Source: Parasegetibacter sp. NRK P23
GTDB lineage: Bacteria; Bacteroidota; Bacteroidia; Chitinophagales; Chitinophagaceae
Assembly: GCF_023721715.1 (NCBI RefSeq)
Contig: NZ_JAMDLG010000001.1
Span: forward strand, 3,857,655-3,921,654
DNA: 64,000 nt
Direction: 5' to 3'
Shown: positions 3,016 to 48,444 of the stretch, piece after piece
Position numbering within the stretch: the stretch's first letter is position 1
How the letters are laid out: each line of letters begins with the position of its first letter
The notes under the pieces: generated by a model
Databases searched by the model: none
The model's input: the letters and a program-made list of their open reading frames with translations, nothing else
Told to the model about the DNA's origin: nothing
Program-made: the position numbers and the translations under genes

Positions 3016-3024
3016 GGCTTAAAT

Positions 3025-4409: not shown

Positions 4410-4414
4410 TTACA

Positions 4415-5894: not shown

Positions 5895-5919
5895 CATGTA
5901 CGTTATTTCCTCATTGGAG

Positions 5920-5967: not shown

Positions 5968-5984
5968 GACTTTAGCCCAAACCT

Positions 5985-10310: not shown

Positions 10311-10328
10311 CTTCACGTTTCACAAATG

Positions 10329-10480
10329 CACGGGGTGCTTTCCCGCAGGGAAGGCTGAGATCATACCCGGTACCTGATCTGGATAATACCAGCGGAGGAA
10401 TTGCAAAAATGGTGTTGCACATCATTCGGGCGTAAGCTCCTGTTCCCATGGTTTTCCGGGCAGGAGCTTTTGATTTTTTA
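10329..10480 (+). ncRNA. TPP (THI-box) riboswitch with terminator-type expression platform
   Basis: GGGGUGC ... GCUGAGA ... ACCCGGUACCUGAUCUGGAUAAUACCAGCGGAGGAA matches the THI element. It is followed by a 9-bp stem (aagctcctg/caggagctt) plus a U-tract at 10434..10480. Confidence 0.85.
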
Positions 10481-10498
10481 ATACGCAACACCATTACA

Positions 10499-11209: not shown

Positions 11210-11212
11210 TCG

Positions 11213-12277: not shown

Positions 12278-12286
12278 ACCATACAA

Positions 12287-12928
12287 ATGAAACGAATGAT
12301 TAAGAACGGAATTTACCTCGTGGTGGACCCGGCCATGCCGCTGATGAAATTATTGCCATTGCTGGAACAGGTATTGGAAGCGGGCGTGTCCACCGTACAG
12401 GTTTGGGATCATTTCCCGGCAGGATGCGATCCAGTTGCGTATACAAGGGCTATCATGGATATTGGGAAAAAGTTCAATGTGCCCGTGCTCATCAATCAAA
12501 ACATTGCTCTTTTCTTTGAAACAGGTGCGGATGGTATTCATTTCGACCAGGTTCCAAACCAGTATGATAAACTGAGAGAGCAAGCCGGGCCGGACTCCAT
12601 CATTGGCATCACTTGCGGAAACGATATGGAACGCGTACAATGGGCCGCCGAGAATAACATAGATTACATTTCCTTTTGTTCCATGTTCCCCTCCGCCTCT
12701 GCGGGGGTATGTGAAATCGTCAATCCGGCAAACATTTTAAAAGCCAGGGAAATATTCAGCGGCAAGATCTTTCTTTCAGGCGGCATCACGCCGGCAAACA
12801 TGGCCAATCTCGCACCGCTGAAAACGGATGGTATTGCCGTGATATCCGGTATTCTCAGCGCCGCCGATCCCGCAGGAGCCGCACGTAATTACCTGAACAC
12901 GTTTGAGCAACAGGCCACCGTACTATAA
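12287..12928 (+). CDS. thiE: thiamine-phosphate synthase (ThiE/TenI family)
   Basis: TMP-TENI fold motifs (GIYLVVDP..., QVWDHF, GADGIHFDQ, ISFCSMFPS). 213 aa. Downstream of a TPP riboswitch. Confidence 0.65.
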   Translation: MKRMIKNGIYLVVDPAMPLMKLLPLLEQVLEAGVSTVQVWDHFPAGCDPVAYTRAIMDIGKKFNVPVLINQNIALFFETGADGIHFDQVPNQYDKLREQAGPDSIIGITCGNDMERVQWAAENNIDYISFCSMFPSASAGVCEIVNPANILKAREIFSGKIFLSGGITPANMANLAPLKTDGIAVISGILSAADPAGAARNYLNTFEQQATVL

Positions 12929-25999: not shown

Positions 26000-26037
26000 T
26001 TCCTATTTTTGCCACCCGTTCCAAAAGAACCAAGGAT

Positions 26038-26110
26038 GGTGCGGTAGCTCAGTTGGTAGAGCAAAGGACTGAAAATCCTTGTGTCGCCGGTTCGATTCCG
26101 GCCCACACCA
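26038..26110 (+). tRNA. tRNA-Phe (GAA)
   Basis: Cloverleaf drawn by hand. D-arm GCTCAGTTGGTAGAGC. Anticodon stem-loop AAGGA-CUGAAAA-UCCUU. T-arm GCCGG-TTCGATT-CCGGC. Close to E. coli tRNA-Phe. Confidence 0.85.
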
Positions 26111-26117
26111 CGAAGAA

Positions 26118-26145
26118 AAGATCACAGAAATGTGGTCTTTTTTTG
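26118..26145 (+). terminator. rho-independent terminator after tRNA-Phe
   Basis: aagatcaca-gaaa-tgtggtctt followed by T7. Confidence 0.7.
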
Positions 26146-26230
26146 TGCGCGGGAGCGGCGGGAGCGAGTTTTAGGGATTTGGTAATACAGCAGTAATGTT
26201 TACGCATAACGATCATACTTATCGTTAATC

Positions 26231-26950
26231 ATGATAGGAGTAGGGCGGCAATGGCTGCCCTATTTTTTATACATTCGGGTCACAAATAATTCTATGAAAG
26301 CGTTAACTGCGATATTTCTGTTTTTCTTCACAACCCATATAACTTTTGGACAACAAAAGAAAGGAAGGGTATCCATATCTGCTAATTATGGATTGACAGG
26401 GAATTTTTTTGTTCGTTCTTATGATGAACAAAATGGCCCAACAGACAAACAGTACTTCTACAAAAAGAATTTTATAGGATCCGCGGCGGGGCTTGCTGTC
26501 ACATTTCAGGTGTCCGAAAATTCAGGACTATTTCTTGAGTATTCACGCACAATCAACACTGGGAAAAAATCATATGAAGGTTCACTAAATAGCACGAGTG
26601 TAATGATCGAAGACTTCAGGCTCAGGCATGTCAATAATTTTTTTCAACTAGGTTATGTAAGAAACTTTAAAATGGCAAACGCTTTTATACAAGCGCAAGC
26701 GGGCGTTTTTATGCTCACCGACCAAAAGCAGCTCATTTCAATAGAAAGATGGGATAACCTTATAAGCATAAGCGAAACCAATGCGGAAAATTCCGGCTCA
26801 AAAGAGGCTGGCGTTTTTTTAGGTGGTGAATATTCTTTTAAGTTGGATACAAAAGTGGACTTTGGCATTCGTACACGGGGATATTTTTTGGTGTCAACCG
26901 GGACCTTTGAAGCGTTAACACTTACTCCGGTGCTACGATACAATTTCTAG
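26231..26950 (+). CDS. outer-membrane beta-barrel protein (porin/OmpA-like beta-barrel). The likely start is MKALTAIF at 26294.
   Basis: Signal peptide. Alternating amphipathic beta-strands. C-terminal aromatic residue (RYNF). Confidence 0.6.
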   Translation: MIGVGRQWLPYFLYIRVTNNSMKALTAIFLFFFTTHITFGQQKKGRVSISANYGLTGNFFVRSYDEQNGPTDKQYFYKKNFIGSAAGLAVTFQVSENSGLFLEYSRTINTGKKSYEGSLNSTSVMIEDFRLRHVNNFFQLGYVRNFKMANAFIQAQAGVFMLTDQKQLISIERWDNLISISETNAENSGSKEAGVFLGGEYSFKLDTKVDFGIRTRGYFLVSTGTFEALTLTPVLRYNF

Positions 26951-27041
26951 CCATAATACTCCCCAACTGGCGCCACTTGCTTACATAGTAATTTTATCGA
27001 TTACCGTTACCTTGAAGGCCATTGATCGTTGCGTCACGAAA

Positions 27042-27911
27042 TCATTTAAGCCGCGCCCCTTTAAACCTATCTGCCACAATACGAGACCAGTCATTGGTAC
27101 CGACGTTTGGATCTTTAATTACACCGTAATTAAATTGAATATGAAGAGAATCATTTACTCGATTATAGAAGCCAAACGAATACAGGGAATTTACCCACTC
27201 ACCTTTGTATTGAAAATAAGCCGCTGTAACAGTTGGACCGGTTATGCCAAACCCTTTGGAAGAAGGGTCGATTTCGGAGTAAATCGGAAACCCGGCAGGA
27301 AGGTCTTTGATAGCATAATAACTTCGCTCAACGCTGTAACGGCTTTCATACATCCAACCAATCTCAATATTAAATGTGTCGTTTTGGTTGCTTGCGAGAA
27401 CGCCTCTATAGATGCCAACAAGTGGGGTACCCTCCAGGATTTTAATTGATTTTTTTATTGTATCAATCCCGCTGTATTCAGCTTTGTGTCGGTTTGTGTA
27501 GGTTACGATCGCCTCAACAAGAACTTGCGATTGAGGCATTCCAAAGCCCAGATACAGGCTTTTGCCTTGTCTGATAAGCGGATCACTTCCAAATTTCCAT
27601 TTCACTGAATAATCGAATGATGTATCAATTTTTAATGAAAAATTGAGTCGGACACCATCATCGTAATAGGTGCCGTTTGGTGTTTTATAAATATAGAATA
27701 GTGAGTCTGCAAGAAGCGTATCGATACTTGCATATTTCCGGCTGGGATCGAGGTAGATATTTGTTGCGGAAACGTTTTGTGCAACAACAATTTCAGCTTT
27801 AGGGTTGGCCGCAAGATGTGGGCTTTTCTCTTTCCGGCACGATAGTAAACCAATTCCAATGAGTGCATGAACACACATTAAATAAAACTTCATAAAATAA
27901 GATTGAAACAA
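27042..27911 (-). CDS. hypothetical lipoprotein
   Basis: Lipobox LLSC after the signal peptide. AT-rich codon usage relative to its neighbours. Confidence 0.55.
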   Translation of the reverse strand: MFQSYFMKFYLMCVHALIGIGLLSCRKEKSPHLAANPKAEIVVAQNVSATNIYLDPSRKYASIDTLLADSLFYIYKTPNGTYYDDGVRLNFSLKIDTSFDYSVKWKFGSDPLIRQGKSLYLGFGMPQSQVLVEAIVTYTNRHKAEYSGIDTIKKSIKILEGTPLVGIYRGVLASNQNDTFNIEIGWMYESRYSVERSYYAIKDLPAGFPIYSEIDPSSKGFGITGPTVTAAYFQYKGEWVNSLYSFGFYNRVNDSLHIQFNYGVIKDPNVGTNDWSRIVADRFKGARLK

Positions 27912-27987
27912 ATCTATTTCAAAATTTTGGATTCAATCTTGTTTTCCTGAGCGTTCTGATAAATAAAGTTCTGGTAAAAAGCCTTAC

Positions 27988-29808
27988 TCAATGGCTATCT
28001 TTCAATGTGCCCAAAAAGGCCACAATCGCTTTCTTTTCACCCACCGTCAACGACAATGAATCGAAAGGAAGTGTTTGAGAAGGAAGATCTATCCCTATAC
28101 CGACGCCACCTCCTTTGTTGTAAAACTCAACCACCTCTTCCAGGTTAGTATAAACGCCATTGTGCATGTAGGGAGCCGTAGTGGAAATATTTCTTAATCC
28201 CGGTGTCTTGAAGGCAAAAAGGAGTTCCCGGATTGCATTTATCTTATAGCGACCTGAGTCTTTGTCGATGCGTGCATTGTTCCAAACGGCCCGTTCAGGA
28301 ACCCCGATAATCTCAGATTCGGATTTGGTAAACCAGGGCGGTGTGGTGCCGTTGAAGAGGGGCATGAAATGACAAGTGCCGCATTTGGCTTTGCCCATAA
28401 ACAGGTTGAATCCGTTAACCTCTTGTTGCGACATACTTTTTCTGTCTCCGCGAATATATTTATCGAACCGCGAGGCGAAGGGGTTCAACGAACGAACATA
28501 CGCTGCGATCGCGTTCCTGATCTCGTAACCACCCGGCTGATTTTTTTCACCATACACTTTTTGAAGCGCTTTCCGGTAGAAAGAATCTGCAAGCAGCCGT
28601 TCGGCGGTTGACCGGGCTTCCAACGCAAACTCATTGCTGTTCTGCATTACATCGTTGATCTGGTCCTCCAGCGAAGTGGAGCGCATATCATAGAACTGCG
28701 CGGACTGCAATGCGGCGTAATAAAGTGTCGGACTGTTCCTGGGCAAGGAGCCGCCATGCACAAGATTACTTGCCTTAGGCAATCCATCGGTAAAAGAGAG
28801 TCCTGCCTTGTGGCAACTGGCGCAACTGATTTTTCCTGAAGCTGACAGTCGCCGATCGTTAAACAATAATTTCCCTAGGGCAACTTTTTCCTTACTGGTG
28901 GCGGCTTTTGCATACGGCGCATAAAAGTCGGGATTCCAGGCGCTTCCTTCCATCAAATCCGCGAAGCTACCGGAGAAAGGAGCGCTGAAGTTAAGTGTGT
29001 CGGCTTGTTGCGGACGGTACACATCCAACAGGCGGCTCAGCGGCATCAGGTGAGTAGTGATGAACCCAAGGCGGTTGAAGGTATTAAAATCGTTGTGCGC
29101 TCCCAGGTAACCAATACCAGCATCGATAGCGATATTCAGTTCTGCTGAAACAGAATCTCCAAAATAAGCCTGGCAGAAAAGCCTGATGCCTTCTAGCGCT
29201 GCTGCGGTTTCAGGGATGGCAGCAACGCTGACTGGCGCATCAAATCCAGTAATGCCAAGTGTGGCGATTCGTATGATTTCATGTTGAAGGAGTTCATACG
29301 CATGGCGCGGCAGAATGGCGTTGTGGGCCATATTGGCTTTTACGAAACGGATATCGGTTAGTAAAAGCTGCGCTTCCTCCGAAACAGTTTTCCGAAGGGA
29401 ATCATGGTAGTCTGCAAACAGCAATTGCTCAATTACCTGGAAACCATGGGGTGGCCAAACCACACCATCTTCCGTTTTTACATCGGGCAATGCCGGTCCG
29501 TTAATGCGGCGAACAAGTCCCTGGAAGTAATATTCAGTAATGGCCTCGGCCCTTTTGTAAACAGCACGGCTCCGGTGGAACTGTTGCTGAAGCGAATTGG
29601 CTCCGGCCTTTTGAGCAAGCATGGAATCGAGTACGGTAATTTCAGTGATGAGGGTATCCATCTGCCGTTCGAACTGAACGATGCTGTTCCGGGCGCCTTC
29701 AAGGGTTTCAGTTTTGTGCTCCGAACAGGAACCCGCGAATAAAACGAAGGCAAAAAATGCAGCGATGGATAGCACAACAACTCTCATAAAACGATAAAAT
29801 GGTAACAA
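27988..29808 (-). CDS. di-haem cytochrome c peroxidase (CCP/MauG family) with about 250-aa N-terminal extension
   Basis: Two CxxCH haem motifs (CASCHKAG, CGTCHFMP). Signal peptide. Confidence 0.8.
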   Translation of the reverse strand: MLPFYRFMRVVVLSIAAFFAFVLFAGSCSEHKTETLEGARNSIVQFERQMDTLITEITVLDSMLAQKAGANSLQQQFHRSRAVYKRAEAITEYYFQGLVRRINGPALPDVKTEDGVVWPPHGFQVIEQLLFADYHDSLRKTVSEEAQLLLTDIRFVKANMAHNAILPRHAYELLQHEIIRIATLGITGFDAPVSVAAIPETAAALEGIRLFCQAYFGDSVSAELNIAIDAGIGYLGAHNDFNTFNRLGFITTHLMPLSRLLDVYRPQQADTLNFSAPFSGSFADLMEGSAWNPDFYAPYAKAATSKEKVALGKLLFNDRRLSASGKISCASCHKAGLSFTDGLPKASNLVHGGSLPRNSPTLYYAALQSAQFYDMRSTSLEDQINDVMQNSNEFALEARSTAERLLADSFYRKALQKVYGEKNQPGGYEIRNAIAAYVRSLNPFASRFDKYIRGDRKSMSQQEVNGFNLFMGKAKCGTCHFMPLFNGTTPPWFTKSESEIIGVPERAVWNNARIDKDSGRYKINAIRELLFAFKTPGLRNISTTAPYMHNGVYTNLEEVVEFYNKGGGVGIGIDLPSQTLPFDSLSLTVGEKKAIVAFLGTLKDSH

Positions 29809-33662: not shown

Positions 33663-33682
33663 TTCATTTGGTTTTATAAAAG

Positions 33683-33754
33683 CACGGGATGAAGGATTCG
33701 AACCTTCATGCACGGGTTTGGAATCCGTGTTGTTGCCAATTACATCAACCCCGC
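33683..33754 (-). tRNA. tRNA-Trp (CCA)
   Basis: Acceptor GCGGGGU/AUCCCGU (2 G-U). Anticodon loop UUCCAAA. T-arm GAAGG-TTCGAAT-CCTTC. Discriminator G. Confidence 0.7.
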
Positions 33755-33757
33755 GAA

Positions 33758-33832
33758 TGGTGGATGAAACAGGATTCGAACCTGTAACCACGGCGTTTCA
33801 AACCGCTGCTCTACCATTGGAGCTATTCATCC
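33758..33832 (-). tRNA. tRNA-Phe (GAA), second copy, CCA encoded
   Basis: Acceptor GGAUGAA/UUCAUCC. D-arm GCTCCAATGGTAGAGC. Anticodon stem GCGGU/GCCGU with loop UUGAAAC. T-arm ACAGG-TTCGAAT-CCTGT. Confidence 0.65.
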
Positions 33833-33836
33833 GTTG

Positions 33837-33908
33837 TTGGTCCGGCAGGATTTGAACCTGCAGCCTTGAACGTATCAGGTTCCTGCGCTACCATTGCGCC
33901 ACGGACCA
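33837..33908 (-). tRNA. tRNA-Ile (GAU)
   Basis: Acceptor UGGUCCG/CGGACCA. D-stem GCGC/GCGC. Anticodon loop CUGAUAC. T-arm GCAGG-TTCAAAT-CCTGC. Confidence 0.6.
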
Positions 33909-33987
33909 TTTGCCGGCTCAGAAAGATTGGAACTTTCACTGTTGTGTTCGTAGCACAGTGTTCTTTCCGGTTAAACTATAAGCCGGG

Positions 33988-34060
33988 GGTTGTCTCCGGG
34001 CCTCGAACCCTGTTCTCTTCTTTCACAGGGAGGCGCTTTACCCGTTAAGCTAAAGACAAC
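33988..34060 (-). tRNA. tRNA of uncertain identity. Anticodon loop CUGUGAA (GUG, His-like) with discriminator C73, but a weak anticodon stem.
   Basis: Perfect 7-bp acceptor GUUGUCU/AGACAAC. D-stem GCTT/AAGC. T-loop TTCGAGG. Anticodon stem CCUCC/AGAAG has two C-A mismatches. No encoded G-1. Confidence 0.4.
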
Positions 34061-34066
34061 AAACTG

Positions 34067-34138
34067 TTGTTGAGGCTGGATTCGAACCAGCATCTTCAGC
34101 GCCAAAAGCTGACGTGCTCGCCGTTGCACTACTCAACA
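34067..34138 (-). tRNA. tRNA-Gln (UUG)
   Basis: Acceptor UGUUGAG/CUCAACA (U1-A72 as in bacterial tRNA-Gln). Anticodon stem-loop UCAGC-UUUUGGC-GCUGA. T-arm GCTGG-TTCGAAT-CCAGC. Confidence 0.8.
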
Positions 34139-34140
34139 TC

Positions 34141-34176
34141 GCATAAAAAAACCCGGTCGTTTTTGGCGACCGGGTT
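34141..34176 (-). terminator. hairpin + U7 immediately 5' of tRNA-Gln (terminator/attenuator-like)
   Basis: Perfect 9-bp stem acccggtcg/cgaccgggt, 7-nt loop, then UUUUUUU on the minus strand. It ends 3 nt before the tRNA 5' end. Confidence 0.5.
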
Positions 34177-34374
34177 CATCGTTACTGCATGAATGGGTTA
34201 TGTATTCACAAGTATATGATCCGGTTGCCGGGAAAGAATATGTTGTTCGTTGCCTGTACTGATTTTTGCGCAGAGGGGTATCGTAAACCAATAGGCGGCA
34301 TGTTGCGAACGTAAATTCTTTCGCATGGTAAATGGTATATGTTGTATTCGTTGTTGCATCTCCGTTATATTGGT

Positions 34375-34410
34375 ATAAATAAAATAAAAAACCCCGCGAT
34401 TCAGGCGGGG
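34375..34410 (-). terminator. rho-independent terminator (minus strand) downstream of the lipoprotein/small-membrane-protein genes
   Basis: Stem ccccgc/gcgggg followed by UUUUUAUUUUAUUU on the minus strand. Confidence 0.65.
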
Positions 34411-34786
34411 CGTATCTTTCAGCGATTCAGTCTGTTCAACTTATTGCATAGGTACATGCCCCGTAAATGGTGTATAGCATTCTTTGCTAAACCAATTGAG
34501 TGAAATAATATGTTGCGCTATTCGTGGCATGATTTATTTTTTCTTCGGATGCAAAGATGTGAATCTTTTTTTGATATCACCAAATGATTGCATGAATTTT
34601 TTGAATAAAAATTTTTACTCAGAAAAAAAATTCATGTTACAGATGAGCTAAAAGGTTTCTTTACAGGGCTTCAAATTTACGATAAGAAGCCACGTTAAAA
34701 CCCTTTTCAAAACAAATTCAAATACAAAGAAACCGTTACAGGAGCAATGCGGTATTGCTCCCGTAACGCCTTCTGAAGAATGGGGT

Positions 34787-35008
34787 TTATTGCTGCATAT
34801 TCAATTTCCGCTGATGTATGTAAATCATTAACATCGCCAGCGTACTTCCGACAATAGGAACAGACCAGATCAATATAAGCAGCAGCAATATTGCCAACGC
34901 GCCTCTCTTGATGGGAAATTTCAACAATAAGAAACTGGATGCAATGGCCAGCGCGATATGCAGCGCTATAGCCGCCTTCCAAACAGTGGATGAGATAATA
35001 AATTCCAT
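34787..35008 (-). CDS. small two-TM membrane protein
   Basis: Hydrophobic 73-aa ORF. Its start lies 12 nt after the stop of the upstream lipoprotein gene. Preferred over the overlapping 34707..34982 ORF. Confidence 0.4.
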   Translation of the reverse strand: MEFIISSTVWKAAIALHIALAIASSFLLLKFPIKRGALAILLLLILIWSVPIVGSTLAMLMIYIHQRKLNMQQ

Positions 35009-35019
35009 AGTATTAAAGT

Positions 35020-35769
35020 TTATTTACAGGAACTACCGGTACACTCAATTTCCTGGGTCGCCATACAACCATAATCTTCCCAGAGACAGCCCGCGTCAAC
35101 GCCATATATTTTTCTGCAGTCAGGGTGCGTTTTGATGTAATCGTTCGCAAATCTCGTCACATGTTCTGAGGCACTGCTGCGCGACGTTCTGAAAGATACG
35201 GCAGTTTTTCTGCAATTAAAATCGTCTAATCCGGGATCCGCGCCATCCATCCCTGGGTTTGCCACATCAGCAACAGTTTCCGCTTTTTGAAAACGAGGAA
35301 GACTCTTGTCCGTAAGCTCTAGATAGGCAACGGTAAGCAGGCTTAGCACAGCTATTTGATTGTCGTTCAATTGCTCCACGGAAGCGGCGTCATAAAGCTG
35401 CCCGTTGTAGTCGAGTTGGAATGTCTTTTCCCGGCTGTTGATCAGCAGCGCAGAAGAAATGTTTTCATTGCTGAAAGACAGCGTGATACTTTCATCAGGC
35501 TCCAACTTATACTTTAATGTTGCGCCTGCTGTTTCTACCGTTGCGCCGTTCAGATTTCTGAACCCGCCATTCAGCCTGAACTCAATCACGTTCCCGATAA
35601 GCGGGCTTATGCGCTCTATACTTTCGATACCCAAAGCCCTCGTAACTTTCGCAAGGTTCGTGATCAGTGATGCTTCATGCGCCAGGTTCAGGTCAACATG
35701 CGGAGCGGACTGTTTGCTACAGGAAAAAACAAAAATGGACAGGAAAAAAACAAAAGGAAATAATTTCAT
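35020..35769 (-). CDS. hypothetical lipoprotein with Cys-rich C-terminus
   Basis: Lipobox VFSCSK. Six or more Cys in the last 60 aa. Confidence 0.55.
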   Translation of the reverse strand: MKLFPFVFFLSIFVFSCSKQSAPHVDLNLAHEASLITNLAKVTRALGIESIERISPLIGNVIEFRLNGGFRNLNGATVETAGATLKYKLEPDESITLSFSNENISSALLINSREKTFQLDYNGQLYDAASVEQLNDNQIAVLSLLTVAYLELTDKSLPRFQKAETVADVANPGMDGADPGLDDFNCRKTAVSFRTSRSSASEHVTRFANDYIKTHPDCRKIYGVDAGCLWEDYGCMATQEIECTGSSCK

Positions 35770-35953
35770 GATGTAAAATTTTGATGAAGGGCAAGATTAG
35801 AACTATTGTTTTGGGCGAGGTGTTTTTAACCATTTAAAATGGATAAAAGAATAAAGTATTTTGGAAATGCATAACTGGTAAAATAAAGCCCGCTTCAGTG
35901 AAAATCCGTAAACCTTAATCACGGCAGTATAGCTACCTTGAAATGGTAAAAAC

Positions 35954-36844
35954 ATGCTTATGTTAAAGACCCTGCTTTGCTGTTCAAGTGTTTTGTTCGC
36001 GCTCTTTGTGCAGGCGCAAACCTCGTCTGGTGGCGCTATTGTGCATTCTTTCGGAAAGCACCTGATTACCGCGCCGCCTGCAACAATGAAACTGGATTCT
36101 TTCTACGCGAAGTATACTGACGCCTGGGGCATTCCTGTGATCTCCTCAAAAAATGTTTCCGATGACGCGTTGCTCGTTGCACGTGATATTGTGAACTACA
36201 TGTTGCTGAAACGGCCTGATGTTAGGGAAGTGCTCATCAAAAGAGGCGCACGTTTATCCATTATCGGGAAAGATGAAATGCAAACCGATCTTCCTGAATG
36301 CAGGGACTGGAAAAAGCCAACCAGGGACGACCGCAGGCTTACACCGGGAGAAAGAGAAAACTACGATAAACCAGGCGGGATCGCTTCTATGACCGATCAG
36401 CAATACTGGAACCAACGCGCACGTGGAATGGGCGGTATTCATACTTCCTGCGCTGAAGAGAACCTGCTCGGTATTCCGGGAACACGGTATTTTGGTGAGA
36501 ACATTACAGTGCACGAATTCAGCCACAATATGATGGGTGCGATTCAATCAATAGACCCTGAGTTCAGAAAAGAGTTGCAGGCAGCATATACAAATGCGAA
36601 AGAGAAAGGTCTTTACAAAGGGCAATACGCCATCAATACGATGGATGAATACTGGGCCGAAGGAACCCAGTGGTGGTTCTGGTCGAATTTTGAATTTTAC
36701 GATAACGATGTGCGTGTTCAGTCGCCCGAAGACCTCAGGGCTTATGATCCCGCTTTGTATGCCATCCTTGAAAAGGTATACCACGACCACCATATTCCCG
36801 CGGATGTTTATTATGGGAAGAACCTCGGTGGAAAGAAGAAGTGA
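35954..36844 (+). CDS. secreted putative zinc metallopeptidase (HExxH)
   Basis: Signal peptide. HEFSH motif in ITVHEFSHNMMG with downstream E/D/YW residues. Family uncertain. Confidence 0.45.
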   Translation: MLMLKTLLCCSSVLFALFVQAQTSSGGAIVHSFGKHLITAPPATMKLDSFYAKYTDAWGIPVISSKNVSDDALLVARDIVNYMLLKRPDVREVLIKRGARLSIIGKDEMQTDLPECRDWKKPTRDDRRLTPGERENYDKPGGIASMTDQQYWNQRARGMGGIHTSCAEENLLGIPGTRYFGENITVHEFSHNMMGAIQSIDPEFRKELQAAYTNAKEKGLYKGQYAINTMDEYWAEGTQWWFWSNFEFYDNDVRVQSPEDLRAYDPALYAILEKVYHDHHIPADVYYGKNLGGKKK

Positions 36845-40831: not shown

Positions 40832-41629
40832 CTATTTCAGTTCCTTCAGTTGTATTCTTCTGAAATCGATGGGCTGTCCCTCACTCTGGAAGGCGATATA
40901 CCCTTCTTTGAGCATTTTCCCGTTCAGCTTCTGCGTGGGGTCGAACCTGTTCACCACGCTGCCACCAATCTGTGGTTTACTGTAGGTTAATACTGTGTCG
41001 CCTTCTATGATGTGTTGCACAAGGGAGTCGCCGTACACAATAAGTTCAGCCTTCACCCATTGCTCCGGGGGATAAGTTTTGGAGGAAGAATTGATGCAGT
41101 GGGTGGAATCCAGCTTTCCGTTATAAACAACGTGTGTGCCGGGCGAACACATATTGCCGGTGGGCCTGGGTTTGCCATCGGGTAAGCCGGCCAGCAACTG
41201 CATTTCCACGGATATTGGCCAGTCCTGTTCTTTGGGCATGGTACGGGGATCCTGGGAATGGAACATGATGCCGCTGTTCAGGATGGTATAGGAGGGTGCG
41301 TCTTTCCGCCAGTCGCCGGTGAATTTGTATTCGAATTTGAGGTGGAAGCTGGAAAGCGGTTTCTTGTAATAAAGGTGGCCATACCTTTCGTTGAACGATT
41401 CGTACTGGTCATACCTTACTTCGAGCACAGAATCTTCGGTAATGCGGAAGGTGTTGCCATAGTTATCGCCGGTTTCATGGTGGTGAATCTTTACCATCCA
41501 GTCTTTGAGGTCTTTTCCGTTGAGCAGGTCCTGCCATCCGGCCTGTTTGTTTTGAACGGGGGGCTTGCAGGAAAACAGCACCAGTAGAGCGCTGAGCGAA
41601 AGGGTCAGGTAGCGAACAATCGATTGCAT
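40832..41629 (-). CDS. DUF1080 (3-keto-disaccharide hydrolase / laminin-G-like) domain lipoprotein
   Basis: Motifs GWQDLLNGKDLKDW and YIAFQSEG. Start trimmed to the signal-peptide Met. Confidence 0.7.
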   Translation of the reverse strand: MQSIVRYLTLSLSALLVLFSCKPPVQNKQAGWQDLLNGKDLKDWMVKIHHHETGDNYGNTFRITEDSVLEVRYDQYESFNERYGHLYYKKPLSSFHLKFEYKFTGDWRKDAPSYTILNSGIMFHSQDPRTMPKEQDWPISVEMQLLAGLPDGKPRPTGNMCSPGTHVVYNGKLDSTHCINSSSKTYPPEQWVKAELIVYGDSLVQHIIEGDTVLTYSKPQIGGSVVNRFDPTQKLNGKMLKEGYIAFQSEGQPIDFRRIQLKELK

Positions 41630-41783
41630 GTCTGTAAGTTTTTTCAACCTGTAATTTATCTTCCTTTTTCCGTTCAGCAAGTATTCAGCGGCGGCATTTA
41701 AAATTTTCCTAATATTATGTCCCTTTTCTTTCCGGAAAGGCGCTCTGGTTAGTCTGCATATTCTTCATAATCAATTTATACTC

Positions 41784-44700
41784 ATGAACGGGTTGAACAT
41801 TGTTATAAGAGGGCATAAGCAGACGCCCGCAGTTGCGACCAATGCAGGCGATGTATTGGAGCTGGAAGCGTCTTACACGATTACCGGGGTTTCCCGAGGC
41901 GATGCCTCTGCCCATAAGATCACACTGAACAGGGAGAAATTACTTGAATTTATTTTTGAAGATGAAACTACATGGATGTGCAGCGATGCATCCATCAACG
42001 AATTATTCCCCGAACTGGATGCGCCTGGCATGGCTTCGGCGGTACGTGGCGGCGATGGCGCATTCGAAATACCCGCGGCATTAAAGGCGTCGGGAGCGGA
42101 ACGTGGATGGGTGACCAACGTGGCCATAAAGCTCATCAATGTATTCGCGAAAAAGAAGATAGGCATCACCGTTGAAAAAGCCGCCAGGAATTATGAGTTG
42201 AAGAACCTGGGCAATGTGGTGGGACTTTTTAAAGTAGATACTGGCTTTCATTTGCACGAATTCCGTGCGCCGGAGCTGGGGAAACCGGTGCTTTTGCTGA
42301 TCCATGGAACAGCGTCTTCCGTATGGGGTTGCTTTGGCGGAATGAAAAATACAGAACTCTGGAAATACCTTTGCCAAACCTATGGTAACAATATTTACGC
42401 TTTCCAGCATGAAACACTGAGCAAAAGTCCGTTAGACAATATCCGCGAACTTATCGGGCTATTGCCTTCCAACCTCCACCTGCATATCATTACACATTCA
42501 CGTGGTGGATTGCTGGGAGATGTACTCTCCAGATTCACAGATTCTGATGCGGGGAAAAATGGCTTTACAGATGAGGAACTGGCTTTGCTGGAGAAAGAGA
42601 AAAGACATGCAGACCTCCGGAACATTGAGGCGATCACGAAGTTGATGGCGGGGAAACAGTTGCGTGTGGAGCGTTTCATCCGTGTTGCCTGTCCTGCCGC
42701 CGGAACGATACTGGCTTCCAAACGACTGGATATTTATTTCAATGTGATCGCCAACCTTACCGGTTTATTAACCGGTTCACTGGCCAACCCGCTGTTCACG
42801 GCTTTCCGCGAACTGATCGCCTCGGTGATCGATACCAAAGATGACAGCGATGTATTACCGGGCATAGAAGCCATGAACCCGGAATCGCCGTTTTTGAAAG
42901 TGCTGAACAATCCATCCACGTCAGCGCCATTGAACAATCAATTGGTGGTGGTGGCCGGTAACTGTGGACTGAACTTCAGTATGAAGGCGTTGAAGATACT
43001 TGCCGTTCGCCTTTTTTTCCTGGAAGCCAACGACCTTGTGGTGAACAGCGATTCCATGTACCTGGGGGCCAAAAGAAAAATGCCAGTGCAGTATTTTTTT
43101 GATGAGGCCGATGATGTGGACCACTTCAGCTATTTCAGGAATAAAAAGACGGGCCAGGCTATGATGCGCGCCTTCCAGACCCAGCCCGATAAGCCTGTTC
43201 CGGGGTACGCGCTCTTCAACAGCCCCAGCTCGGAAGAAGCCCTCCGCAACGCGTTATTTAACCCGGAAGGTGGTGAACTTTTCCCCGATGAAATCACGGG
43301 AAAAAGACCTATCGCTGTGCTGTTACCCGGCATCATGGGCTCCAATATTGGTCCTAAGGGCGACCTGCTCTGGATCAATTACTGGAAGTTCATTAAGGGT
43401 GGGTTAAAAGACCTGAACAACCTGGAGGAATACACCGCAACTTCCGTGGTGAAAACCTCGTATAAAAAACTGAAAGATGAACTCTCCGCGAAATACGATG
43501 TGGAGACTTTTCATTTCGACTGGCGTCGTCCATTGACCGAAGTGGCCGCTATCTTCAATGAAAGAATAAAACAACTGATGGCCTTCGGCCAGCCGATCAG
43601 GTTGATTGGCCACTCTATGGGCGGTGTGGTGATCCGTGATTTTATGGTGAACCACCGCGAAACCTGGCAGCAGCTCAATAATTCCACGGGCTTCCGGCTT
43701 ATCTTCCTCGGGTCCCCACTGGGCGGCTCTTTCAGAATTCCCTACGTGTTGTTCGGGAAAGATTCCATCATCAAGAAACTCGCGATGATCGATATGCGCC
43801 ACAGCAAAAAGGAGTTGTTGCGCGTGTTTTCAGGCATGCAGGGATTGTTAAGTTTACTTCCCCTCGATAAAAACAATGCGGAAAATGATTTTGGAAACGG
43901 TGAAACCTGGCGACAGATGGCCCAGGCTGTAGGCGATTCTTCCTGGCCGCTTCCGCCTGCCAATACAATTAAAGCATTTGCAGATTACCGTGATGGCATA
44001 ACGGATCTTTCAGCGGATGACTTTAAGAATGCCGTGTACATAGCAGGGAAAGATAAGTCCACACCTTGCGGTTATCGCATCGAAAATGGGCAGCTCGTGT
44101 TCCTAAGTACCGCCGAAGGCGACCAGAGCGTAACCTGGGAAACAGGCATTCCTGCTTTAATGTCAGCCGCCAATAATGTGTATTACGTAAACGTTTCGCA
44201 TGGCGCGCTGGCCAACGAACCTTCCATGTTCAAAGGCATTGGTGAAATACTTGAAACAGGTACCACCAACCTTTTGAGTAAGAAACGGCCGGTGGTACGC
44301 GGGGAAGAAAAAGTATTCCGTACACCGGAAGTACACGACTTCGATACTTCCATGATAGGGTTGGAAAAAACACTGCTGGGATTGGGTGGAGAAACCACCG
44401 GAATTGAGCGGGGTGAAACACCGATCCGGGTATGGGTAAGTAACGGGGACCTTTCTTACGCGGCAAATCCGGTACTCGCAGGTCACTTTGAAGATGATGG
44501 CGTACTGTATGCCGAATCTTATATAGATGCGCTGCTGGATGGCGCGTTGCGAAAAAGACACCAGCTTGGATTGTACCCGGGAAAAATCGGTACCAGTGAA
44601 GTGTTCCTGCCCGATGCGGGTCGGTTTACCGGAGCGATTATAACCGGTTTAGGTAAACCCGGTACATTAACGGCGCACCAGCTCACGCTTACCGTAGAGC

Positions 44701-47243
44701 AGGGGGTCACCAATTATTTACTGGGCTTTAACAGCGGGCTGGAACGCAGGCAAAAAAAGAACGACGGGTCGGGTATTTCCTCACTTATTATCGGGTGTGG
44801 ATATGGCGGACTAAGCGTGGAGAATTCCATCCGCGCCATTTTACAGGGCGTTCAGAATGCCAATGTGAAAATGGCGAAATTGTATGGAACCCATTGCCGG
44901 ATGGTGGAAGATGTAGAATTTGTGGAGAAGGACCACAGTCGCGCGCTCGGATGTTTCTATTCACTCGCAAGAATAGAGCAGGAGCGCAACCGCTGGCTCA
45001 ACATTACTTTACCCGAGAAAAAAATAAGGCTCCTGCTGGGAAGGACCAAAAGAATACCACACGACGCCAGCGAGGAATGGTGGAACCGCATCACCGTAAG
45101 GCAGTATGGTCTGGAGACGTTGGAAAGAAAAGCCATCAGCAGCCTGCATTTCAGCGCCTCCACCGGAGGGGCAAGAGAGGAAGTGCGGGTACTGCATTGC
45201 AGCATGGGAATTATTGATGAACTGGTGAACAATATTTCCACCAGCAATGAATGGACGCCACAACGAGCCAAGACCATCTTCGAATTGCTGATACCCAACG
45301 ATTTTAAAGAACAACTCAAAAGGCAATGCCATATCTCCTGGATACTGGACAAGGAAACGGCCGCTTATCCCTGGGAGTTGCTGCAGGACACGATCCAGAA
45401 TGCAAAACCCCTGTGCATCAGCGCGGGCATGATCCGTCAACTGGCCACGGAGCAATACCGGACCATTATCAATCCAGCGGTGAAGAACAATGTGCTGATT
45501 ATTGCCGAACCGCAGCTCAACGGCGCGGCCCCCGCCCTTCCGGCAGCAAAAGAAGAGGGGCTGCAAGTGGCGGATATATTGAAGGAGAACGGGTACGAAA
45601 CAAAACTCGTGGCAGAAGCAGCGGCCCCGGAAATAATCCAGGCTTTATACGAAGACGATTACCGTATTATTCACCTGGCGGGACACGGTTTTTTCAACGA
45701 ACAGGAACCGGAAAATTCCGGGATGATGATCGGTCATAATGTCTATCTCTCCACCCGTGAAATCGCCCAGATGAGTGTGGTTCCGGAACTGGTGGTGGTG
45801 AACTGCTGCTTCCTGGGCAAAACTTCCGGAGCCGCCGAAGCGCTGTACAACAAGAGATACCGGCTGGCCGCCAACATTGGCACACAACTGATTGAAAACG
45901 GAGTGAAAGCCGTAGTGGCCGCAGGGTGGGCTGTGAACGACGCGGCAGCGCAGGAGTTTACCAATGTGTTTTACAAACACCTTTTCGATGGGTATAACTT
46001 CGGGGAAGCTGTGCTGGAAGCTCGAAAGGCTGTTTTCACGCTGTTCCCGGGAACGAACACCTGGGGGGCCTATCAATGCTATGGTGATCCGTTCTTTAAA
46101 TTGAAAGCGAATGGTCCTTCCAGGAAAGAAGCGCGTCCGTTGTCGTATGTTATTTCGGAAGAAGCGGAATACGACCTGTTCAACCTGCTGAATGAACTGG
46201 AGATGGGGAACCGGCCCGTAGCTGAATACAACCGCAAACTGGTCGCCATCATGGATGCCGTTGACCGTGCGGGCATCCGGAATGCGGAGATCACCGAAAA
46301 AGAAGCATGGGTCCTCACTGAACTGGCGAGTTTTGATGAGGCCATCGTGAAGTACGAGCAGTTGCTCCGGATGGAAAAAGCGCTTTTCACTTTCCTCAGT
46401 ATGGAAAGGTATTGCGATATCAGGGGCAGAAAACTGTTGCGCGATCTTCAGCGTAAACTCATTACGGCCGCACAGGCGGAAGAAGGCATCCTCCGCGTGA
46501 TTGCCGACCTGGGTGTGCTGATCAACGCCGGCGGTACGGCAGAGCGGTTCGGGCTACTCGCGCGCGCCTACAAAAGAAAAGCGCTGATGACCAACCAGTC
46601 CGCCGCCCGGACAAAGCTGCTGGAAAAAGCGGCCGCGCTTTGTTACCAGGCATACCAGGTGGCGGGAAAAGGGGAGAATATGTACGCGCTAACGGCATGG
46701 CTGGAAATGGAAAGCGTGCTGGTATTGGTCTACGGAAGAAAATGGGGACAGTCCTGCCGCTCGGAAAACCTGACCTACACACTCCCGCAAGCCGAGGATG
46801 TTCTAAAATTACTCGAGCAGTCCGCCACTACTGTTTACAGCGACGACGATGAATTTGATTACAACGATATGGTTTCCGCCACACACATCGAACTCTGCAG
46901 AATGCTGGTGGGCAAAGCGTCCGGCGGGGAAGAGGACTGGAGCAATATTATGCGTACGCTGCAATCTATATGGGAAAAGGCCGGCTCCCCGGGTAAAAAG
47001 ATCGCGGAAACTGAAAGATGGTGCTTCCTGGCACATGCGCTTTCAGGCCAGAGAAAAGATATTGCTTACGAATTCATCCCCGAAGGAAACGCAGGTATGG
47101 AAACGATCAGCGTGTATGTTGAAATGGTCAGGGAAGTGTTGAAGCTCCGTAAAAAGAACGGCGGCATCTCCGTGAAAAAAGCACCGGTTAAGAAGGCTGC
47201 CCCCAAGAAAAGCCCGGCGAAAAAACGGGTTACGAAAAAGTAA
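41784..47243 (+). CDS. 1819-aa multidomain protein: unknown N-domain + two tandem lipase/esterase-like alpha/beta-hydrolase modules + caspase-like region + CHAT protease domain + TPR-like helical array + Lys/Ala/Pro-rich tail
   Basis: GxSxG elbows ITHSRGG (~aa 239) and IGHSMGG (~aa 611), each preceded by an oxyanion-type LLIHGT / LLPGIMGS segment. CHAT dyad HLAGHG (~aa 1298) and VVVNCCFLG (~aa 1342). C-terminal helical repeats. Tail KKAPVKKAAPKKSPAKKRVTKK. Single uninterrupted frame. Confidence 0.85.
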   Translation: MNGLNIVIRGHKQTPAVATNAGDVLELEASYTITGVSRGDASAHKITLNREKLLEFIFEDETTWMCSDASINELFPELDAPGMASAVRGGDGAFEIPAALKASGAERGWVTNVAIKLINVFAKKKIGITVEKAARNYELKNLGNVVGLFKVDTGFHLHEFRAPELGKPVLLLIHGTASSVWGCFGGMKNTELWKYLCQTYGNNIYAFQHETLSKSPLDNIRELIGLLPSNLHLHIITHSRGGLLGDVLSRFTDSDAGKNGFTDEELALLEKEKRHADLRNIEAITKLMAGKQLRVERFIRVACPAAGTILASKRLDIYFNVIANLTGLLTGSLANPLFTAFRELIASVIDTKDDSDVLPGIEAMNPESPFLKVLNNPSTSAPLNNQLVVVAGNCGLNFSMKALKILAVRLFFLEANDLVVNSDSMYLGAKRKMPVQYFFDEADDVDHFSYFRNKKTGQAMMRAFQTQPDKPVPGYALFNSPSSEEALRNALFNPEGGELFPDEITGKRPIAVLLPGIMGSNIGPKGDLLWINYWKFIKGGLKDLNNLEEYTATSVVKTSYKKLKDELSAKYDVETFHFDWRRPLTEVAAIFNERIKQLMAFGQPIRLIGHSMGGVVIRDFMVNHRETWQQLNNSTGFRLIFLGSPLGGSFRIPYVLFGKDSIIKKLAMIDMRHSKKELLRVFSGMQGLLSLLPLDKNNAENDFGNGETWRQMAQAVGDSSWPLPPANTIKAFADYRDGITDLSADDFKNAVYIAGKDKSTPCGYRIENGQLVFLSTAEGDQSVTWETGIPALMSAANNVYYVNVSHGALANEPSMFKGIGEILETGTTNLLSKKRPVVRGEEKVFRTPEVHDFDTSMIGLEKTLLGLGGETTGIERGETPIRVWVSNGDLSYAANPVLAGHFEDDGVLYAESYIDALLDGALRKRHQLGLYPGKIGTSEVFLPDAGRFTGAIITGLGKPGTLTAHQLTLTVEQGVTNYLLGFNSGLERRQKKNDGSGISSLIIGCGYGGLSVENSIRAILQGVQNANVKMAKLYGTHCRMVEDVEFVEKDHSRALGCFYSLARIEQERNRWLNITLPEKKIRLLLGRTKRIPHDASEEWWNRITVRQYGLETLERKAISSLHFSASTGGAREEVRVLHCSMGIIDELVNNISTSNEWTPQRAKTIFELLIPNDFKEQLKRQCHISWILDKETAAYPWELLQDTIQNAKPLCISAGMIRQLATEQYRTIINPAVKNNVLIIAEPQLNGAAPALPAAKEEGLQVADILKENGYETKLVAEAAAPEIIQALYEDDYRIIHLAGHGFFNEQEPENSGMMIGHNVYLSTREIAQMSVVPELVVVNCCFLGKTSGAAEALYNKRYRLAANIGTQLIENGVKAVVAAGWAVNDAAAQEFTNVFYKHLFDGYNFGEAVLEARKAVFTLFPGTNTWGAYQCYGDPFFKLKANGPSRKEARPLSYVISEEAEYDLFNLLNELEMGNRPVAEYNRKLVAIMDAVDRAGIRNAEITEKEAWVLTELASFDEAIVKYEQLLRMEKALFTFLSMERYCDIRGRKLLRDLQRKLITAAQAEEGILRVIADLGVLINAGGTAERFGLLARAYKRKALMTNQSAARTKLLEKAAALCYQAYQVAGKGENMYALTAWLEMESVLVLVYGRKWGQSCRSENLTYTLPQAEDVLKLLEQSATTVYSDDDEFDYNDMVSATHIELCRMLVGKASGGEEDWSNIMRTLQSIWEKAGSPGKKIAETERWCFLAHALSGQRKDIAYEFIPEGNAGMETISVYVEMVREVLKLRKKNGGISVKKAPVKKAAPKKSPAKKRVTKK

Positions 47244-47250
47244 AATGAAA

Positions 47251-47298
47251 CGGGCGTATCAAAGAACGATACGCCCGCGTTTATTTCATTCATATTTT
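47251..47298 (+). terminator. strong rho-independent terminator of the giant gene
   Basis: Perfect 10-bp stem cgggcgtatc/gatacgcccg with a 7-nt loop, followed by a T-rich tract. Confidence 0.8.
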
Positions 47299-47582: not shown

Positions 47583-48104
47583 TTACAACGAATCCTTCTT
47601 CGCCCCCAGGTTCGCATATTTATTCACCGCATTACAATCCACCTCTTTCAAAGGAAACCCTGTGAACTGAAGCTGCGAACGGTCCGAAAAAACCATTCTC
47701 CCGTTTTTTTCCTCCACCGGCCCATAGCCTTCCACCATCGAATCTCCCTGTTTCAAAAAGCTGACTTCCCGGATAGAAACTTTTCCTTCCGACATAAAGG
47801 TATATTCCCCGAACAAAGTATCACCGGAAGCCTGCAATACCACCATACCCACATTTTTATCTTTCTCAAAAAGATTGTAAGTCAGGTTGCCTTTTATGGA
47901 GTCCGCGCTCACAATCATCGACATGCTGATGGTGTCCTTGCCATTTATGCCGGCATAACAAAGCGCCACATTGCTTTTCGGTACGAAAGCGGCGCCGTTC
48001 TTTCCACCTTCCACCCCATCGGGACTGCTTGGTTTAGGATCTGCATTGTTACACGAGAAAAGAAAGAGGGCTGCCGCGAAAGCCGGGATCTGAAAAAGTT
48101 TCAT
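47583..48104 (-). CDS. hypothetical lipoprotein
   Basis: Start trimmed to MKLFQIPAFAAALFLFSC (lipobox). Confidence 0.55.
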   Translation of the reverse strand: MKLFQIPAFAAALFLFSCNNADPKPSSPDGVEGGKNGAAFVPKSNVALCYAGINGKDTISMSMIVSADSIKGNLTYNLFEKDKNVGMVVLQASGDTLFGEYTFMSEGKVSIREVSFLKQGDSMVEGYGPVEEKNGRMVFSDRSQLQFTGFPLKEVDCNAVNKYANLGAKKDSL

Positions 48105-48444
48105 GGTAGTTTTTTTTAATGAACACACGCATGTGCCCATTCATAATGATAAAATTTAATAGGAATAAAGATAATCGAATTCGTGTGCAGAATGGATGTT
48201 AACGAGATGAAAGGAAAATTTTGAATCCAGAATACTAAAAGAAAATAACGGAAGGGCTTCCGGGCAAAATACTGATTCCGTTAACGGAAAACAACGTCGG
48301 TGGCACCGGTTCCGCGGATTTCACGCCCAAGGGCCTTTTCTTCCAAAAGATTAACACGGTGAACATCAGCAGAAAAACACGGTACCCGGTGGCACCGCTA
48401 TACCGGTGGCACCGGGGTACACAATTCCTTCGTAAATTGCACCC

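Follow-up and report, generated by a model that had tools for sequence, protein, structure and literature searches.

Results

A giant protein with two hydrolase modules

The window analysed here, i.e. the whole stretch of 64,000 nucleotides (nt) from contig NZ_JAMDLG010000001.1 of Parasegetibacter sp. NRK P23 (Chitinophagaceae), contains a giant open reading frame (ORF) at positions 41784-47243 of the forward strand that encodes 1819 amino acids (aa). An exact-sequence look-up identified the product as WP_251760761.1, a protein annotated solely as "CHAT domain-containing protein", and its cluster at 90% identity comprises 12 sequences, 11 of which are 1819 aa long. WP_251760761.1 carries two lipase-type alpha/beta-hydrolase modules, a CHAT caspase-like protease and a TPR-S domain in one chain. 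DUF7379, LCAT, CHAT and TPR-S were also the only families that Pfam reported for the whole protein, and the Pfam search gave no match to the N-terminal domain (aa 1-146). A hydrophobic stretch resembling a signal peptide was not seen at the N-terminus when the sequence was read by eye rather than with a predictor. Confidence of the structure models is given as the predicted local distance difference test (pLDDT). The parts of the gene, in window positions, are:

41784-42221, + strand: N-terminal domain, aa 1-146, conserved across homologues
42222-43193, + strand: module 1, aa ~147-470, DUF7379 alpha/beta-hydrolase (Pfam, model and motifs)
43194-43298, + strand: inter-module linker, aa 471-505, low model confidence (pLDDT <50 for aa 487-500)
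43299-44288, + strand: module 2, aa ~506-835, LCAT/LPLA2-like alpha/beta-hydrolase with helical cap (Pfam and model)
44298-44303, + strand: R839-G840, where module 2 meets the middle domain, candidate cleavage site (conserved; coil in the model)
44421-45083, + strand: middle domain, aa ~880-1100, probable relative of the M17 leucyl aminopeptidase N-terminal domain
45267-46088, + strand: CHAT caspase-like cysteine protease domain, aa 1162-1435 (Pfam)
46101-47153, + strand: helical C-terminal region including TPR-S (Pfam match at aa 1517-1637)
47154-47240, + strand: Lys/Ala/Pro-rich basic tail, aa ~1791-1819

Module 1 matches Pfam family DUF7379 (PF24096) from aa 170 onwards (E 2.5e-31, 109.6 bits against a cut-off of 33). 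Its oxyanion segment LLLIHGTASS is found at aa 170-179 (nt 42291-42320), with the HGT motif proper at aa 174-176, and the elbow HSRGG at aa 238-242 (nt 42495-42509). The AlphaFold2 model of aa 145-500 (pLDDT 89.4, predicted template modelling score (pTM) 0.89) is weak only in the linker towards module 2 (aa 487-500). It places Ser239 (nt 42498-42500, model residue 95) between strand 88-94 and helix 97-108, which is a classic nucleophile elbow, Asp417 (43032-43034, residue 273) in the loop preceding the last long strand (291-298), and His447 (43122-43124, residue 303) in the loop past that strand. When the model was compared with the PDB by Foldseek, the Geobacillus L1/T1 lipases were the best matches (E 2e-10, template modelling (TM) score ~0.5), followed by lipases of Staphylococcus, Pseudomonas and Burkholderia. 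A single-sequence search of the PDB with module 1 gave no useful match; a profile built from 12 module 1 sequences matched RavL (7x2p, E 0.0011), with FIHGTA and HSRGGLV in common, and more weakly the Geobacillus family I.5 lipases (E 0.03-0.06). In the alignment with the latter, lHlvsHSRGG pairs with IHIIAHSQGG, VACPArGTtL with IATPHDGTTL, and dnDlvVNTksM with ENDGIVNTVSM, the segment that in T1 lipase holds the catalytic Asp.

The best structural neighbours of module 1 are thus the family I lipases (I.5, Geobacillus T1/L1; I.6, Staphylococcus; I.1/I.2, Pseudomonas/Burkholderia), with which it has in common the xHSxGG elbow, an (A/C)P-x-GTTL motif after beta6 and NDxxVNTxSM around the catalytic Asp. 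Unlike these lipases, module 1 has (S/T)HSRGG instead of AHSQGG at the elbow and a different helical insertion (aa ~315-375), is intracellular and fused to other domains, and belongs to a separate Pfam family, DUF7379; the profile E-values are moreover marginal. We therefore describe module 1 as resembling bacterial family I lipases in sequence motifs and predicted fold, and do not place it as a member.

Module 2 matches the Pfam family LCAT (PF02450) at aa 574-698 (E 6.6e-8, 32.6 bits against a cut-off of 21), a family also found in 110 of the 120 homologues listed, and its elbow draws additional weak Pfam matches to PGAP1, Abhydrolase_6 and thioesterase. The motifs LLPGIMGSNIG (aa 513-523, nt 43320-43352; PGIMGS at aa 515-520), DWR (aa 579-581) and GHSMGG (aa 609-614, nt 43608-43625) all lie in this module. 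The AlphaFold2 model of aa 496-850 (pLDDT 96.2, pTM 0.94) sets Ser611 (nt 43614-43616, model residue 116) between strand 110-115 and helix 117-128, Asp780 (44121-44123, residue 285) after a beta-hairpin and His806 (44199-44201, residue 311) after strand 304-306, and shows a helical cap (model residues ~156-252) between beta6 and beta7. Searching with module 2 in phmmer retrieved LCAT and group XV phospholipase A2 (LPLA2) at E 2.5e-4, and the top three Foldseek matches were LPLA2 (4x92, 4x95) and LCAT (6mvd), with TM scores of 0.59-0.62 over ~410 alignment columns that span the whole module. The GHSxG elbow, DWR, LG-P-GGS and the Ser/Asp/His order are common to module 2 and these enzymes, and the helical cap is included in the superposition. 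Judged by sequence and model, module 2 is of the LCAT/LPLA2 type. It is nevertheless only ~15% identical to LCAT and LPLA2, which are secreted or lysosomal glycoproteins, whereas module 2 is embedded in a giant protein of the bacterial cytoplasm.

These results bear on an initial annotation of the region, which had placed two tandem lipase-like alpha/beta-hydrolase modules at 42270-44200. The modules are indeed there, and coincidence would not account for them: all four motifs lie in one frame, the Pfam matches are above their cut-offs, and the models, both confident, show an alpha/beta-hydrolase fold that matches solved lipases and phospholipases. The location was correct and its end was not, since position 44200 falls inside the codon of His806 and module 2 extends to ~44288. 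A spacing of ~60-100 aa between oxyanion segment and nucleophile had been given, and the values of 65 aa (module 1) and 96 aa (module 2) agree with it. The GxSxG elbow ascribed to each module is present in module 2 (GHSMGG), while module 1 has (S/T)-H-S-R-G, which is not a strict GxSxG. Of the proposed PGAP1/LCAT/DUF676 affinity, the LCAT part suits module 2; module 1 is instead a DUF7379, family I lipase-like domain. The Asp and His of each triad, which the annotation had left to be identified, could be assigned from topology and conservation as Asp417/His447 and Asp780/His806.

Conservation of the triads and origin of the pair

A homologue search with aa 130-860 returned 264 hits, which were aligned with each module as the first sequence. 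The triad of module 1 was kept throughout (Ser239 in 117/117, Asp417 in 120/120 and His447 in 119/119 homologues), and that of module 2 nearly so (Ser611 in 110/111; Asp780 in 84/90 and His806 in 79/82 non-gap sequences). In an independent set taken from the GTDB scan described below, the S-D-H combination was found in 52/52 complete copies of module 1 and in 73 copies of module 2. Both modules have the alpha/beta-hydrolase fold with a strand-Ser-helix elbow, and conservation of the triad residues is 94-100% among non-gap sequences. By topology, motif alignment and conservation, the assigned residues of both modules sit at the canonical Ser/Asp/His positions and make plausible triads, and both modules are probably catalytically competent.

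Three distant homologues carry Gly in place of the module 2 nucleophile (AHGMGG, AHGAGA) and keep HSRGG in module 1. They come from Cyanobium (L033), Propionivibrio (L039) and a member of Bryobacteraceae (L046), and their substitution looks like a lineage-specific inactivation of the LCAT-like module. A non-catalytic module 2 thus exists in a few lineages, and is neither the state of WP_251760761.1 nor the rule.

The pair had initially been regarded as unusual, and as a possible paralogous duplication in which one copy is regulatory. Our results favor neither view. Profile-profile comparison of the two modules (hhalign) aligned only 57 columns at the nucleophile elbow, with 18% identity and a probability of 92.6%. 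Such similarity is at the level of any two alpha/beta-hydrolases, and the closest structures differ (family I lipases for module 1, LCAT/LPLA2 for module 2); consequently, two distinct families have been joined, and a recent duplication of the modules is ruled out. A regulatory copy is contradicted by the two intact triads of WP_251760761.1, which are near-invariant in the homologues, with Ser replaced by Gly in the three distant lineages only. The tandem is the norm of a large family, with 1014 cluster representatives at E<=1e-30 and a single ORF in ~40 GTDB species.

The protease and putative sensor half

The initial annotation did not connect the two modules to the CHAT and TPR-S domains downstream, which are key to the likely mechanism. 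The CHAT domain (PF12770, aa 1162-1435) is matched with E 1.3e-30 and 107.3 bits against a cut-off of 24, and its presumed dyad, His1301 (in HLAGHG) and Cys1341-1342 (in NCC), showed no variation, whether among 24 close or among 41 full-length homologues. TPR-S (PF20308, aa 1517-1637) is matched with E 7.8e-9 and 36.5 bits against a cut-off of 27.6, rising to 40.9 bits with the C-terminal fragment; its designation as a sensor is an annotation that follows the Pfam name. Against the PDB, a single-sequence search with the CHAT/TPR-S half gave no useful match and a profile search retrieved no solved CHAT structure. The PADLOC models matched the CHAT part weakly to BovA of the Borvo system (E 8e-8, profile positions 525-666 of 711, i.e. 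142 positions). Membership of Borvo is ruled out, as this match is partial and covers the CHAT part only.

The middle domain is conserved to the degree of the enzyme domains, with strong conservation of polar residues in the motifs HGDL, GH, AE, LYPG, GLG and AN. That of WP_251760761.1 alone had no Pfam match. However, the middle domains of 6/15 homologues matched Peptidase_M17_N (PF02789; best E 5.8e-7), and the family profile of the middle domain matched the N-terminal domain of leucyl aminopeptidase 3jru (E 0.0036). Stand-alone CHAT homologues matched M17-N weakly as well (E 0.005-0.03). The N-terminal domain of M17 leucyl aminopeptidases has a macro-like fold.

The protein ends in a histone-H1-like, Lys/Ala/Pro-rich tail, KKAPVKKAAPKKSPAKKRVTKK, which could bind DNA or anionic lipids. 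Similar basic tails occur sporadically among the homologues (L015, L030, L049). Since few homologues have one, we discarded the idea that the tail is a conserved anchor to membrane or DNA.

A widespread family with interchangeable parts

An exhaustive HMMER scan with aa 130-860 over 1.84 billion cluster representatives matched 3326 proteins at E<=1e-3, including the 1014 at E<=1e-30 mentioned above. Most of the best 150 matches measure 1750-1870 aa, and in these the two modules align at residues ~130-870. A scan of GTDB with one genome per species returned 80 loci, which we mapped with hidden Markov models (HMMs) from alignments made here. In ~40 species a single ORF of 1640-2235 aa shows the order N-terminal domain, module 1 (M1), module 2 (M2), middle domain (MID), CHAT and TPR-S. 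The full architecture occurs, among others, in Chitinophaga, Pinibacter, Spirosoma, Aquimarina, Dokdonia, Nitrospirales, Azotobacter chroococcum, Accumulibacter, Competibacter, Thiothrix, Sedimentitalea, Mycolicibacterium senegalense, Acidobacteriota and Rhodothermales.

Other loci hold reduced versions. M1-MID-CHAT-TPRS without M2 was found twice (L048, L052) and M2-MID-CHAT without M1 three times (L055, L056, L059), once more with TPR-S added (L057); M2-CHAT is the form of L060, L064, L065, L069, L070 and L072, and M2 by itself, at ~445 aa, also exists. The MID-CHAT-TPRS core alone (~950-1017 aa) is found, for example, in L005 (Chitinophaga sp. SYP-B3965, P0150) and L006 (P0212), and a hydrolase gene was not found near either. 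These stand-alone proteins show that the protease-sensor core exists independently of any lipase. In L002 the gene is split, with a CHAT/TPR-S gene of 538 aa located 17 bp downstream of a hydrolase protein of 1243 aa. Hydrolase-only split products are P0025 (858 aa, aligned to module 2) and P0006 (864 aa, reaching the first ~80 residues of the middle region); P0025, from Salmonirosea, and P0188 (959 aa) would together form such a split arrangement, judging from the equal length of the contig recorded for each. Several database entries that seem short are fragments from frameshifted or partial assemblies.

The occurrence of the architecture in many species, together with its variants, makes the tandem the rule in a large family. 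Either lipase behaves like a separate cassette, available for addition to a core of protease and sensor. The family is an uncharacterised, very widespread giant protein and does not belong to any experimentally characterised family.

Conserved arginines as candidate cleavage sites

We counted the conservation of Arg residues outside the catalytic motifs in 41 full-length homologues from several phyla. Three positions in the N-terminal domain and one at the end of module 2 stood out:

R38, nt 41895-41897, + strand: kept in 41/41; next residue G, A, S or D
R88, nt 42045-42047, + strand: kept in 37/41; next residue G, S, D or A
R107-G108, nt 42102-42107, + strand: R107 kept in 40/41; Gly next in 37/41
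R839 (codon in the feature list above): kept in 37/41; next residue G, A, S or D; modelled as coil where module 2 ends, just upstream of the natural gene splits

In module-2-only variants, an R-G pair (once R-A) lies 1-10 residues ahead of the first strand, after a helical extension of ~70 aa (…LRGNIIFIPGIMG, …MRGGPRALILPGIMGS, …VRGGPRVLILPGIMG). By analogy with the protease-hydrolase pair discussed below, we regard R38, R88, R107 and R839 as candidate protease cleavage sites.

Gene neighbourhoods

Several proteobacterial and Nitrospirota loci have, immediately ahead of the giant ORF, a gene for a caspase of the Peptidase_C14 family (~280 aa, E 4e-31). The C14 genes were located as follows:

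L037:2410-3261, L039:6478-7296, L040:1075-1926, L041:1392-2360 and L049:6314-7234: directly upstream of the giant ORF
L045:5127-6173: farther upstream
L029:14972-15928: downstream

The presence of the C14 gene suggests a two-protease cascade in those lineages. A second recurrent neighbour, of 451 aa (L039:15869-17386; also in L045, L046 and L051), has an N-terminal domain of ~200 aa ahead of a C-terminal TPR-S/MAP3K_TRAF_bd part (E 1.6e-24), and may be a separate sensor component. The C14 caspase and this TPR-S protein were the only two recurrent neighbour families identified, and they occur in the proteobacterial and Nitrospirota loci only. When the flanks of the 40 loci with a full-length ORF were compared, no neighbour family was present in more than 7 loci, and an all-against-all comparison of flanking ORFs found no conserved operon partner in Bacteroidota.

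Two homologue loci had further peculiarities. The closest metagenomic homologue (P0002) adjoins a gene for an 822-aa LRR-Roc-COR-TIR protein and a separate one for a 688-aa TPR-S protein (L001:1905-6692), a defence-like setting. The CHAT/TPR-S part of the homologue itself is scattered over several small ORFs, by either pseudogenization or assembly error. L040 (Azotobacter chroococcum DSM 2286) holds two paralogous giant genes at 1937-7432 and 9560-12553, the second of which runs off the end of the locus.

In the Parasegetibacter window the giant ORF is monocistronic, with a divergent gene upstream (40832-41680) and a convergent gene downstream (47583-48140). Between the convergent genes, 7 nt past the stop codon of the giant ORF, there is a further feature:

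47250-47278: GC-rich hairpin with T-runs on both strands, likely a bidirectional terminator

As assigned by reading their translations, the neighbours in the window are of housekeeping type: AhpC/AhpD-like proteins, a UvrD/PcrA-type helicase, an MFS transporter and a protein resembling DUF1080. Neither a C14 caspase partner nor a neighbouring TPR-S gene is present in the window. A scan for sigma-70 promoters gave counts at background level; the sigma-70 consensus is inappropriate for Bacteroidota. Elsewhere in the window, six tRNA genes are packed at 33682-34138 on the - strand (Trp-CCA, Phe-GAA, Ile-GAT, Arg-ACG, His-GTG and Gln-TTG) with spacers of 0-5 nt, and a further tRNA-Phe(GAA) lies at 26038-26111 (+). 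GC content is reduced to 0.42 in 34001-36000, around the tRNA array, and to 0.40 in 26001-28000.

Discussion

The results presented here lead us to consider it rather probable that two distinct lipid-ester hydrolases form the effector half of a conflict protein, the other half of which consists of CHAT, TPR-S and the M17-N/macro-like domain. As to its lipid substrates, its gating by proteolysis, the sites of cleavage, the trigger and its role in the cell, we infer the following. The protein would reside in the cytoplasm in a latent form until a trigger, sensed via TPR-S and/or the macro-like part, switches on the CHAT protease. CHAT would then cut after the conserved Arg-Gly/small-residue sites, R38, R88 and R107 in the N-terminal domain and R839 at the junction, and the lipases, freed or uncovered in this way, would attack membrane phospholipids, leading to cell death or arrest. 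A more specific hypothesis, which we put forward as a tentative possibility, is that of a dual-lipase suicide or immune device. Here a sensor-licensed CHAT would cut the Arg-Gly sites in cis and release a family-I-like lipase and an LPLA2/LCAT-like phospholipase or acyltransferase that act jointly on the membrane, for example as a phospholipase A plus a lysophospholipase or transacylase. A dual-lipase, protease-gated effector class of this kind would be one not previously described.

Two lines of precedent point in this direction. First, a survey of vWA-MoxR and related conflict systems reported that wherever a caspase-superfamily domain occurs, an alpha/beta-hydrolase gene is "always" found beside it (Kaur et al., eLife 2020, PMC7159879), and alpha/beta-hydrolases were listed among membrane-lipid-hydrolysing effectors in a 2021 paper by Kaur et al. 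(PMC8195603). Secondly, in Lysobacter capsici the caspase-like LcCaspase activates LcHydrolase, a zymogen of 296 aa, by cutting it after Arg in R|G motifs. The cuts were assigned to Arg73 and Arg117 on the grounds of fragment sizes and of a complex modelled with AlphaFold3; 161 LcHydrolase homologues keep the R|G motif, and cells that co-express the fragments die (Evans et al. 2025, bioRxiv 10.1101/2025.11.14.688446).

The proposed mechanism should, however, be interpreted with some caution, as several results weigh against it. A defence-island context was not seen around the giant ORF within the window, where the neighbours are of housekeeping type, and the lipase modules drew no match from the PADLOC models. 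The substrate class derives from fold neighbours at 14-18% identity. The conserved Arg residues could be structural, and since neither module is detectably homologous to LcHydrolase, the transfer of its cleavage logic to the family is no more than an analogy.

Four other explanations have to be set against a protease-gated lipid hydrolase. That the modules are a duplicate pair, one copy of which has turned into a non-catalytic regulatory or pseudo-enzyme domain, seems very unlikely to us. The three homologues with a Gly nucleophile do indicate that module 2 can persist without catalysis in some lineages, but in WP_251760761.1 and more than 100 homologues the triads are intact or near-invariant, the two modules share no more than the generic elbow and differ in their closest structures, and each occurs alone with the CHAT cassette, which argues for autonomous effectors. 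An even slimmer chance is given to an exported inter-bacterial or anti-eukaryotic lipase toxin, comparable to the Tle effectors of type VI secretion systems or the Legionella phospholipase effectors. The N-terminus read by eye offers nothing like a signal peptide, a secretion-associated domain is not among the Pfam matches, a conserved immunity-gene candidate was not seen in the flanks (which were not specifically screened for secretion-system genes), and an architecture with internal protease and sensor is typical of intracellular systems. We give somewhat more weight, though still little, to a protease-gated conflict system whose hydrolases act on peptides, acylated proteins or small esters, with possibly one of them as the sole killer. 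This would leave the gating as proposed, but the proteins that match the two modules best are true lipases and phospholipases in which a lid or cap is inserted, and motifs specific to family I.5 and to LCAT (DWR; LG-P-GGS) are present.

The fourth explanation, also an improbable one, is that the protein serves housekeeping or development, for instance by remodelling membrane lipids or transferring acyl groups. Its CHAT/TPR part would then regulate or scaffold, a role that has been proposed for HetF-type CHAT proteins in the cell division of cyanobacteria. The family of LCAT includes acyltransferases as well as phospholipases, the CHAT part has a weak NCBIfam match to HetF (E 5e-4), the gene stands alone in a housekeeping neighbourhood, and no neighbour family is shared by more than 7 of the 40 full-length loci. 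However, the patchy spread over phyla, with domains shuffled, lost or split between genes, is typical of conflict systems, and TPR-S is by name a sensor-type domain. The LRR-Roc-COR-TIR gene and the additional TPR-S gene beside the L001 homologue, and the C14 caspase partner in several lineages, likewise speak against housekeeping, as does the experimental precedent for death modules made of a caspase and an alpha/beta-hydrolase (10.1101/2025.11.14.688446). The explanation retains its weight because the window shows neither the C14/TPR-S partners nor a defence-island signature, and PADLOC gave only the weak BovA match. If it were true, WP_251760761.1 would be an ordinary multidomain enzyme.

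The gating of death effectors by proteases is coming to light as a dominant principle of prokaryotic immunity. Clustered at 50% identity, the present family counts at least 1000 clusters, with members in Bacteroidota, Proteobacteria, Nitrospirota, Acidobacteriota, Actinobacteria and Cyanobacteria. With sensor, protease and two lipase-like effectors in one chain, it is a handy system for asking whether killing proceeds by lipid hydrolysis, how proteolysis in cis would license it, and why two different lipases are kept together. Answers would also supply a function for DUF7379 and for the M17-N-like domain that accompanies CHAT. To specialists in conflict systems the family is unsurprising, yet it provides a directly testable handle on the role of caspase-linked alpha/beta-hydrolases. 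A literature search found no paper on DUF7379, TPR-S or PDB 7X2P, and the supplement of Kaur et al. 2020 contained no terms matching the family.

Compared with known systems, the family is closest in logic to the LcCaspase/LcHydrolase pair and the systems of Kaur and co-workers, in that a caspase-superfamily protease is obligatorily linked to an alpha/beta-hydrolase and to sensor domains, here fused to CHAT in ~40 species or encoded adjacent to it, and in having R-G/small-residue sites. Homology to LcHydrolase (WP_060410396.1) was looked for and rejected: hhalign with the family profile aligned 74 columns at the module 2 elbow with a probability of 7.6%, and Pfam gave LcHydrolase a weak Abhydrolase_6 match only. 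Unlike in that pair, the hydrolases of the family are fused in cis, are two in number, come from different families and measure 320-330 aa each, as opposed to 296 aa for the whole of LcHydrolase. The protease, unlike LcCaspase, is of CHAT type with TPR-S and an M17-N-like domain, and its cleavage of the hydrolase half is a proposal.

A CHAT protease with a His/Cys dyad and a TPR-type or other sensor also recalls Borvo (BovA), the TPR-CHAT protease of Craspase (Csx29, type III-E) and SAVED-CHAT/PCaspase. Borvo is reported to be a single-gene CHAT system (Millman et al. 2022). Unlike these systems, the family has no CRISPR or CBASS (cyclic-oligonucleotide-based antiphage signalling system) context, and none of them has lipase domains. 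CHAT-to-caspase proteolytic cascades in type III CRISPR systems are reported in a preprint (bioRxiv 10.1101/2023.06.23.546230), and the C14 partner gene of some homologue loci recalls such CHAT-to-PCaspase cascades. With the patatin-like phospholipase CapV of CBASS (PMC12480259) the family would have in common a regulated intracellular hydrolysis of phospholipids that leads to membrane failure and abortive infection, whereas the fold is alpha/beta-hydrolase as opposed to patatin and the activation presumably proteolytic as opposed to by cyclic nucleotides. In conclusion, the family fits among the protease-gated death effectors, to which it adds a pair of effectors in place of one, their fusion in cis to the protease, their lipase-like nature and the M17-N-like domain.

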